The notes under the pieces are model-generated. The model worked only from the letters and a program-made list of their open reading frames with translations, did no database searches and had not been told where the DNA came from. This document shows, one piece after another, positions 35,676 to 36,794 of a stretch of DNA of 64,000 bases. Numbering within the stretch: the first letter of the stretch is position 1; each line of letters opens with the position of its first letter. The stretch is from Cetorhinus maximus (lineage: Eukaryota), in assembly GCF_964194155.1 (NCBI RefSeq), contig NC_135902.1, forward strand, positions 40,238,001-40,302,000. The letters run 5' to 3'. A program made the position numbers and the translations under genes.

Positions 35676-36794
35676 TTACACTCTGAACCCACTCTCCACT
35701 TGCCCAGCAGAAACAATGAGCTGGGACTCGGTGAGACCCTCCATCGGGTGCTCCTCCACACCGGCCCCCTTCTCCCTCAGCGCCAGCCTGGGGCACAGCA
35801 TCACTTGGCAGCTTCTCCAGAAAGTGTCTGACAGGTAGATGTAGAGAATGGGGTTGGCGCAGCTGTTGAAGTAGGAGAGGACCACCATGAACTCGAAGAA
35901 CCTCCTGAGGGTGAAGCTGTCGGGGATGGGCAGGAAGACAGCGCAGATGTTGATGATGTAGAACGGGAGCCAGCAGATAGCAAAGGCCAGCACTATGGCC
36001 ACGACCATGGTGGTGACCTTCTTCTCTGAGTTCTCAGCCTGGCTTCTATGGGATGATATCAGGGCGCTCTTTATTCTCATCAGCAACAAGATGTAGCAGA
36101 GCGAGATGATGGTGAAGGGCAGGGCAAATCCCAGCACAAAGGTATAGACAATGAAGGTGGTGGACCAAACAAACACAGGCTCCGGCCAGATTAAAGTACA
36201 TACACCCAAAGTGCCGTCCACATCCGAATATATGGCCATGGGGATGACAGGAATGAAGGAAATCGCCCAGAGGATGACACTGACCCTCTTTGCCAGCCTT
36301 GGGCTGCGCCACCTGGACGATCTGACGGGGTGGACCACAGCCAGGTACCTGTCGATGCTCATCACCGTGATGCAGAAAACGCTGGTGAACTGGTTAATGC
36401 CGTCAAGGATCATCACCAGCCGACACATGAAGCCGCCAAAGGGCCAGCGGCGGAGGGCGATCTGCAGAGCGAGGAATGGCAGGCCCAGCATGAAGAGGCC
36501 GTCTGCTATTGCCAGGTTGAAGATGTAGATGTTGGCCACTGTCCTCATCCTGGCCTGGTGGACAATGGTGAAGATGACCAGCGAGTTGCCGGTCAGCCCC
36601 AGCACACACACCAAGCAGTAGAGCGTGGGGACAAGGACGTCGTAGAGACTTGACTCTGCTCCATCCTCCAGGTCCTGGGTGTCGTTCGCCGGCCACAGCC
36701 CATCGGATGCGTTGGCTGCCGCTTCCAGATGAAAGAGGGTCTCGGCATCCACCCTTAGCACCGACGTGTTCCCTTCAGGTGGAGAGCAGCTCAT
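35676..36794 (-). CDS. Divergent somatostatin receptor of the SSTR2/3/5 branch, 372 aa from the first ATG, intronless CDS
   Basis: [76 protein letters not shown]-terminal sequons NTS/NAS/NDT; ATG at 36794 with an in-frame stop upstream at 36831-36833; minus-strand AATAAA at 35440-35445. Confidence 0.93.
   Translation of the reverse strand: MSCSPPEGNTSVLRVDAETLFHLEAAANASDGLWPANDTQDLEDGAESSLYDVLVPTLYCLVCVLGLTGNSLVIFTIVHQARMRTVANIYIFNLAIADGLFMLGLPFLALQIALRRWPFGGFMCRLVMILDGINQFTSVFCITVMSIDRYLAVVHPVRSSRWRSPRLAKRVSVILWAISFIPVIPMAIYSDVDGTLGVCTLIWPEPVFVWSTTFIVYTFVLGFALPFTIISLCYILLLMRIKSALISSHRSQAENSEKKVTTMVVAIVLAFAICWLPFYIINICAVFLPIPDSFTLRRFFEFMVVLSYFNSCANPILYIYLSDTFWRSCQVMLCPRLALREKGAGVEEHPMEGLTESQLIVSAGQVESGFRV

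Follow-up and report, generated by a model that had tools for sequence, protein, structure and literature searches.

Is the receptor-like open reading frame (ORF) beside SSTR2 in Cetorhinus maximus an additional somatostatin receptor (SSTR) and, if so, how old is it, from which subtype does it derive, and what might it do? The window analyzed here, by which we mean the whole stretch of 64,000 nucleotides (contig NC_135902.1 of assembly GCF_964194155.1, positions 40,238,001 to 40,302,000 of the forward strand), holds the following features:

35676–36794, minus strand: seventh SSTR ORF (SSTRX / sstr2-like / probably SSTR7), 372 aa; recognized by its ORF, Pfam match, fold model, and clade membership
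35440–35445, minus strand: candidate polyadenylation signal AATAAA, 230 nt past the receptor stop codon
8114–9247, minus strand: SSTR2 ORF, 377 aa, ending DLQTSI, the tandem neighbor downstream of the seventh receptor; groups with gnathostome SSTR2
49314–49421, plus strand: first coding exon of presumed SLC39A11 (ZIP family), in head-to-head orientation to the two receptor genes; GT/AG ends and bacterial ZIP matches
59781–59819, plus strand: second coding exon of presumed SLC39A11, 39 nt; AG/GT ends

The receptor gene and its genomic setting

The ORF at 35676–36794 is a single uninterrupted exon, its start ATG preceded by an A at −3, in a window without a single N. The 372-aa product matches the Pfam 7tm_1 profile from position 1 to 260 of 260 (E = 1.4e-65), and its AlphaFold model, of moderate confidence (mean pLDDT of 62), shows seven long helices plus helix 8; all 23 of the best PDB fold matches of this model are SSTRs. 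The class A 7TM fold is accompanied by DRY, CWxP, NPxxY, and the disulfide cysteines of TM3 and ECL2. ORF listing, Pfam match, and fold model agree with the first-pass annotation, which had described an intact 7TM ORF on the strand of SSTR2 and about 26 kb upstream of it (the gap between the two ORFs is 26,428 bp). Two motif statements made there can also be read directly in the translation: DGINQFTS is present, and a QTSI-type end is absent, the tail closing with ESGFRV. The use of DGINQFTS as a mark of the SSTR2/3/5 branch had to be given up, however, because an SSTR1/4/6-branch gene of the same genome (L006:1411–2547) carries DGINQFTS too, with Gln at 3.36, where the other two genes of its branch have Met.

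Downstream, the SSTR2 ORF groups with gnathostome SSTR2 at support values of 93.4/98 and 97.9/98 (42- and 51-row trees, described below). On the other side lie two plus-strand exons that we take to be SLC39A11, from their motifs and from the gene order in gar; the first has 57 to 76% identity to bacterial ZIP transporters (best 10 of 15 rows), and searches of Pfam (including Zip), PDB, and Atlas returned no name for these short exons. The proposed position of the ORF between SSTR2 and SLC39A11 is upheld by these ZIP-like exons, and the order and strands in the window match those tabulated for gar: SLC39A11, receptor, SSTR2, with the receptor on the SSTR2 strand. DNA likeness between the two receptor genes outside their ORFs is confined to repeats. 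Elsewhere in the window, ORFs at 26450–27244 (plus strand) and 41142–41876 (minus strand) resemble retroelement fragments, presumably of Penelope-type and CR1-type elements, and lack a Pfam match.

A search with the receptor in the 4.0-Gb genome, whose proteins group with those of sharks, gave 12 matches at E ≤ 1e-40, seven of which are SSTRs: the window gene, SSTR2, SSTR3 (L004), SSTR5 (L002), SSTR1 (L007), and, besides the last, two more SSTR1/4/6-branch genes (L005 and L006, presumably SSTR4 and SSTR6 in one order or the other). As the genome thus holds six other SSTR genes, the window gene is a seventh; no second SSTR was found beside SSTR3 or SSTR5 at this threshold. Core identities of the window receptor are 53 to 55% to SSTR2, 3, and 5, from which it is equidistant, and 45 to 50% to the other three, as against 65 to 75% for SSTR2, 3, and 5 among one another. 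The genome also encodes four mature somatostatin peptides (L013–L016), one canonical SS-14 and three variants, all with F-W-K-T; a fifth somatostatin gene, expected for elasmobranchs (which have five; 10.1101/823187), was not returned by the genome search. Tetrapods have two (PMC7073721).

Distribution, age, and placement of the gene

In all, 136 sequences can be assigned to the group of the window gene; they come from cartilaginous fishes (sharks, rays, and a chimaera), coelacanth, sturgeons, holosteans, and teleosts. In the protein search (best 120 of 1,111 matches), sequences from sharks, rays, chimaera, coelacanth, and sturgeons come at 59 to 80% identity, followed by SSTR2/3/5 at 44 to 56%, and the top-ranked homologues carry the database labels SSTR5-like or SSTR2-like. 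Bowfin came in through a profile search, which itself missed the teleost members. With bowfin as the query, gar and 116 further sequences were recovered; all those with a species name are teleosts, and all 116 have a sturgeon member as their best match among ten references. A search of 50% representatives (best 150) yielded four further members, closest to zebrafish or bowfin, and no evident new lineage. Besides its RefSeq entry, the zebrafish member (P0212) exists as GenBank protein AYP25868.1. Members from tetrapods, lungfish, and bichir were absent from the matches listed (best 120 or 150 per search), and loss of the gene in tetrapods is likely. Where loss in mammals had been suggested, these matches include neither a mammal nor any other tetrapod.

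Linkage to SSTR2 in other species is indicated indirectly but consistently by accessions, fused gene models, and published gene order. Accessions are consecutive or nearly so with those of SSTR2, on contigs of equal length, in Heterodontus, Rhinoraja, Callorhinchus, Latimeria, gar, bowfin, and three sturgeons; in Heptranchias, the orthologue lies on the SSTR2 contig under a nonadjacent accession number. The order slc39a11 (+), sstr2-like (−), sstr2 (−) is tabulated for gar, and the same order and strands for bonytongue, seabass, and fugu, in supplement 1 of PMC11224465. Automatic models in paddlefish (P0127) and alligator gar (P0299) join the gene in front of SSTR2 into an “SSR2 protein” of 577 to 580 aa; these are probably mis-joined models, which conceal the gene in databases.

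Carpet-shark members (P0018, P0024, and P0129–P0131, from bamboo and epaulette sharks and one further genome) evolve much faster, are rich in Ala, Leu, and Gly, and have a rebuilt helix 8. In the 65-row tree, the bamboo-shark row has an end branch of 3.2 and failed the composition test. Despite their divergence, the nine pocket residues considered below are unchanged in P0018 and P0131.

Four trees were built, in which window-gene members made up 20 of 65, 13 of 42, 13 of 51, and 8 of 37 rows. The 65-row tree was a quick fallback in which the long branch of the clade attracted MCHR; later trees do without MCHR and the bamboo-shark row, and leaving out 23 of the 65 rows gave the 42-row tree. 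Lampreys and amphioxus were added for the 51-row tree, and the 37-row tree (14 of the 51 left out) was computed under a site-mixture model. Sampled members form one clade throughout (97 SH-aLRT with 65 rows; 100/100 in the other three), which includes the SSTR2-neighboring genes of coelacanth and gar (100/100 in the 42- and 51-row trees). Cartilaginous and bony fishes occupy separate branches within it, and SSTR2 has its own full set from the same taxa. Separate duplications in each lineage are rejected by AU tests (p = 7e-6), as is an SSTR2 duplicate restricted to coelacanth (p = 1e-115) or to actinopterygians (p = 1e-77). With lineage-specific duplication rejected at p < 1e-5, a recent origin is refuted and the gene is older than the jawed-vertebrate radiation.

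The window receptor falls inside the vertebrate SSTRs (93.9/96, 51 rows; an AU test rejects a position beyond the SSTRs altogether, p = 0.02), and membership of its clade in the SSTR2/3/5 branch receives 96.3/99 and 98/93 (51 and 37 rows). It is not the orthologue of SSTR2, from which it is separate in all four trees, the true SSTR2 being the gene at 8114–9247; nor of SSTR3 or SSTR5, since the genome has its own copies, which group correctly. A sister position to SSTR3 or SSTR5 is rejected under JTT (p = 0.001 to 0.049) and retained under LG+C20 (p = 0.06 and 0.09). Assignment to the SSTR1/4/6 branch is contradicted by Q2.63, N6.55, and F7.35 (that branch has S2.63, Q6.55, and S/T7.35) and by the test of sisterhood to L006 (p = 5e-5). 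Trees, AU tests, and genome search therefore sustain the earlier proposal of an additional SSTR of long standing within the SSTR2/3/5 branch, and the gene is none of the genome's SSTR3, SSTR5, or SSTR1/4/6 genes.

That proposal had further cast the gene as an old local duplicate; it proves to be older and more widespread than guessed, and a copy of SSTR2 is likely, yet the trees disagree on its placement. The 42-row tree makes it sister to SSTR2 (75/73), the 51-row tree, with lampreys and amphioxus, puts it outside SSTR2/3/5 (63/78), and the 37-row tree resolves no placement; AU tests under two models retain both positions and a third. At ECL2 position 194, Thr occurs in 13 of 15 shark and coelacanth members and in 48 of 51 SSTR2 sequences, as opposed to Asn in 65/65 SSTR5, 26/32 SSTR3, and all three SSTR1/4/6 genes. 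We favor a tandem copy of SSTR2 because of the adjacency to SSTR2 and the Thr194 common to both.

The competing account of origin, unlikely in our view but deserving weight, is that the gene arose by tandem duplication before the vertebrate genome duplications and is what is left, after loss of the other copies, of a third ancestral SSTR lineage in addition to SSTR1/4/6 and SSTR2/3/5. It would explain the position outside SSTR2/3/5 plus lampreys and the equidistance from SSTR2, 3, and 5, it passes the AU tests (p = 0.51, 0.69, and 0.31), and it accords with Table 1 of PMC5207463, where SSTR7 has its own pre-2R progenitor. However, the long stem of the clade invites outgroup attraction, and the site-mixture model prefers sisterhood to SSTR2 or SSTR3/5 by 3 log units; the shared Thr194 and the lack of a second SSTR beside SSTR3 or SSTR5 at E ≤ 1e-40 also speak against it, as does the rejection of two lamprey clusters as orthologues of the window gene (AU p ≤ 0.006). 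These clusters (P0051 and P0321, labeled “SSTR5-like”) join each other and SSTR3/5, leaving SSTR2 outside (98/98 with 51 rows, 92/92 with 37), which suggests that SSTR2 and SSTR3/5 were already separate when lampreys and gnathostomes diverged; the AU test retains the alternative (p = 0.10 to 0.16).

The stem branch of the window-gene clade measures 0.56 to 0.86, compared to 0.11 to 0.22 for SSTR2, and core identity between shark and coelacanth is 70%, versus 81 to 83% for SSTR2/3/5. As judged from the sequences, intact frames in 136 members together with this 70% identity show that the gene has long been retained while evolving somewhat faster. Across 34876–37168, none of the 10 indels listed against the contig of a related organism, which account for 29 of the 31 gap letters, falls within the ORF (p = 0.001), and TM7 and the NPxxY residues are present in all 116 bowfin-query sequences. 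Three RefSeq transcript variants of the Heterodontus protein hint at RNA support. Of two sequencing runs presumed to be RNA, one yielded a single 189-nt piece and the other nothing. An “SSTR5” is reported from pancreas and brain in a catshark transcriptome, the gene not being specified in that account (PMC4362833), and tilapia qPCR reports a gut “sstr2-like” (PMC12428277), which may be a member of the window-gene clade.

Ligand pocket, intracellular face, and predicted signaling

We mapped the ligand pocket on human SSTR2, with contact residues as given in the structural accounts of PMC9343605 and PMC9122944. The window receptor has D131 (3.32), Q135 (3.36), F214 (5.38), F278 (6.51), N282 (6.55), V304 (7.39), and Y308 (7.43). 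Q2.63, D3.32, Q3.36, F6.51, N6.55, F7.35, and Y7.43 are invariant in 136/136 members, and all nine contacts (including F5.38 and V7.39) equal those of human SSTR2 in 20 of 20 nonteleost members and in 50 of the 116 bowfin-query sequences, among which F5.38 varies. Q2.63, N6.55, and F7.35 are the residues of the octreotide-sensitive (SRIF1) type. By its residues, then, the pocket for the W8–K9 tip of somatostatin is complete. The upper pocket differs from that of SSTR2 (5.35 Ser, 6.54 Ile, and 6.58 Ala) and is variable within the clade; D2.50, DRY, Y5.58, W6.48, CWxP, NPxxY, V6.37, and S8.47 are kept. As the four peptides of this genome all contain F-W-K-T, binding of several of them, SS-14 included, is predicted to be likely.

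The intracellular face departs from that of other SSTRs. For this comparison, the other SSTRs were assigned to groups by their best BLAST match among the genes of this genome, with five aberrant rows (fusions and lamprey) set aside. BBXXB at the start of TM6, which by its pattern would be the motif studied in SST5, occurs in 0 of 136 members versus 146 of 151 other SSTRs. A class I PDZ end occurs in 3/136 versus 145/151, and the window protein ends in -FRV; a C-terminal PDZ ligand is said to be present in all SST subtypes, even in the fly receptor Drostar (PMC6148080), and is better regarded as a trait these receptors have in common than as one that defines the family. ICL3 has lost seven of nine positions conserved in SSTR2/3/5, compared to 10 lost of 133 elsewhere (p = 3e-6 by Fisher's test), and in cartilaginous-fish members its net charge is down to +0.5 from about +6. 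SSTR2 residues that touch Gi according to PMC9343605 and PMC9122944 (R155, S244/S245, K246, and N318) are altered in the window protein, and the 11-residue SSTR signature of TM7 (PMC6148080) shows one change. Because two intracellular motifs of the other six subtypes are absent, different signaling and trafficking are predicted.

We consider it moderately probable that this is a subtype derived from a tandem copy of SSTR2, which binds F-W-K-T somatostatins and inhibits cAMP through Gi/o, with weaker arrestin engagement and no PDZ scaffolding. The copy would have arisen before jawed vertebrates radiated, changed quickly, mostly in ICL3 and the tail, and then been retained, until tetrapods lost it. 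Ordinary F-W-K-T somatostatins would be bound through a pocket of the kind seen in human SSTR2 structures, and cAMP would be inhibited through Gi/o, as is the behavior of the family. By analogy with SST5 BBXXB mutants, calcium, ERK, arrestin, and internalization outputs might be altered, with predicted weaker arrestin recruitment, reduced desensitization, and no PDZ scaffolding. The receptor might thus read the same hormone as SSTR2 with a different output or in a different cell type.

An improbable variant is that somatostatin is bound but coupling is poor or to another G protein, so that the receptor would act alongside SSTR2 in a biased, modulating, or scavenging role. An invariant pocket above an ICL3 stripped of its charge is what such a receptor might have, and the changed Gi-contact residues R155, K246, and N318 and the missing PDZ ligand point the same way, but the whole activation set from D2.50 to S8.47 is kept, BBXXB is dispensable for cAMP inhibition in SST5 (PMC6148080), and SSTR4 is described as coupling to Gi without the K246 contact (PMC9343605). 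Quite unlikely, too, is the bolder combination in which the gene alone remains of a third ancestral SSTR lineage, persisting for >400 million years in fishes, its hormone pocket fixed and its intracellular side remodeled, as a biased or scavenging receptor without PDZ scaffolding and present in zebrafish.

The first-pass annotation had suggested that the receptor could pair with one of the extra somatostatin-family peptides of fishes; carried further, this would make it the dedicated receptor for one fish-specific somatostatin (an SS3, SS5, or SS6 product), co-lost with it in tetrapods. The difference between five somatostatin genes in elasmobranchs and two in tetrapods is in keeping with such a loss, as are the upper-pocket residues unlike those of SSTR2. 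Yet this co-loss singles out nothing, because SSTR6 was lost in tetrapods as well; upper-pocket variation within the clade is contrary to one fixed private ligand, the four peptides keep F-W-K-T and the nine deep contacts are those of SSTR2, and each of the five mammalian subtypes is reportedly activated by SS-14 (PMC9122944). On these residues, a private pairing with a single peptide of fishes is not favored, and we see it as decidedly improbable.

Earlier descriptions and relation to known receptors

The subtype is not unnamed, as had been supposed: provisional names are in print (SSTRX, sstr2-like, and probably SSTR2B and SSTR7). Coelacanth SSTRX was described by Ocampo Daza et al. in 2012 (PMC3560075) as a lineage-specific duplicate beside SSTR2: a seventh SSTR, divergent and encoded in a single exon, which shares a scaffold and orientation with SSTR2 at a distance of about 22 kb and branches at the base of the SSTR2 cluster. 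The Latimeria member P0014, whose accession is next to that of SSTR2 and which lies inside the window gene's clade, would be this gene. That account, which used no shark (the word does not occur in it), reads a coelacanth-specific duplicate, which is rejected here; it also places SSTRX “downstream” of SSTR2, possibly in scaffold coordinates.

A 2024 tilapia paper (PMC11224465) describes the sstr2-like gene of gar and teleosts as a local duplicate from the actinopterygian ancestor with 6 TM, possibly pseudogenizing. It occupies the slc39a11-sstr2 interval on the same strands, the gar gene of 870 bp has the length of P0180 (290 aa), and the tilapia gene resembles the cichlid P0278 by eye, both being 339 aa. 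Here, in contrast, the gene is gnathostome-old and retains TM7, and zebrafish, given as “not found” in that paper's account, has a member (P0212). That the window gene is a mislabeled SSTR5 or SSTR2, or a copy that is decaying or arose recently within one lineage, as these two papers propose in part, is hardly tenable: the “SSTR5-like” and “SSTR2-like” labels, the faster evolution, and the very divergent bamboo-shark copies would fit, but the genome has its own SSTR2, 3, and 5, lineage-specific duplication is rejected, and 136 sequences are intact, with TM7 and NPxxY in 116/116, contrary to the published “6 TM.”

Other names are in circulation. An SSTR7 row in a table of Furlong and Seong (2017) reportedly has Yun et al. 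(2015) as its source. In that table (Table 1 of PMC5207463), SSTR7 stands separate from SSTR1/4/6 and SSTR2/3/5 and predates 2R; by this table row, it is very probably the subtype of the window gene. The “SSTR2B” group of gar and fishes in a 2019 survey (PMC6504862), by its gar sequence ENSLOCP00000021860, is probably a member of the window-gene clade, and the “SSTR6; SSTR7” of topmouth culter in a review table row may be the subtype of the window gene or another gene.

In the standard scheme, the jawed-vertebrate ancestor has six SSTRs (PMC3560075; repeated in the IUPHAR review, PMC6148080), and a 2019 catshark preprint still counts SSTR1 to SSTR6. Our literature search, whose reach excludes most subscription journals, found no description of the gene in cartilaginous fishes. 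New, as far as these searches reach, is that cartilaginous-fish members unite the scattered names into one ancient subtype, contradict two published readings as a recent local duplicate, and raise the ancestral count from six to seven; new as well are the BBXXB and PDZ losses, which would predict different signaling. Since RefSeq labels these genes SSTR2, SSTR3, or SSTR5(-like), expression studies in fishes may misassign the subtype, and since zebrafish has the gene, its function is directly testable. The gain is one for comparative endocrinology: the existence of the gene had been noted already, and no new mechanism is shown.

Compared to SSTR2, 3, and 5, the SRIF1-type receptors, the window receptor belongs to the same branch and has the same selectivity residues, but it shares just over half of its core residues with each of them and lacks both BBXXB and the PDZ ligand. 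It is thus a natural variant in which the ligand pocket is retained and these two intracellular motifs have been dropped.
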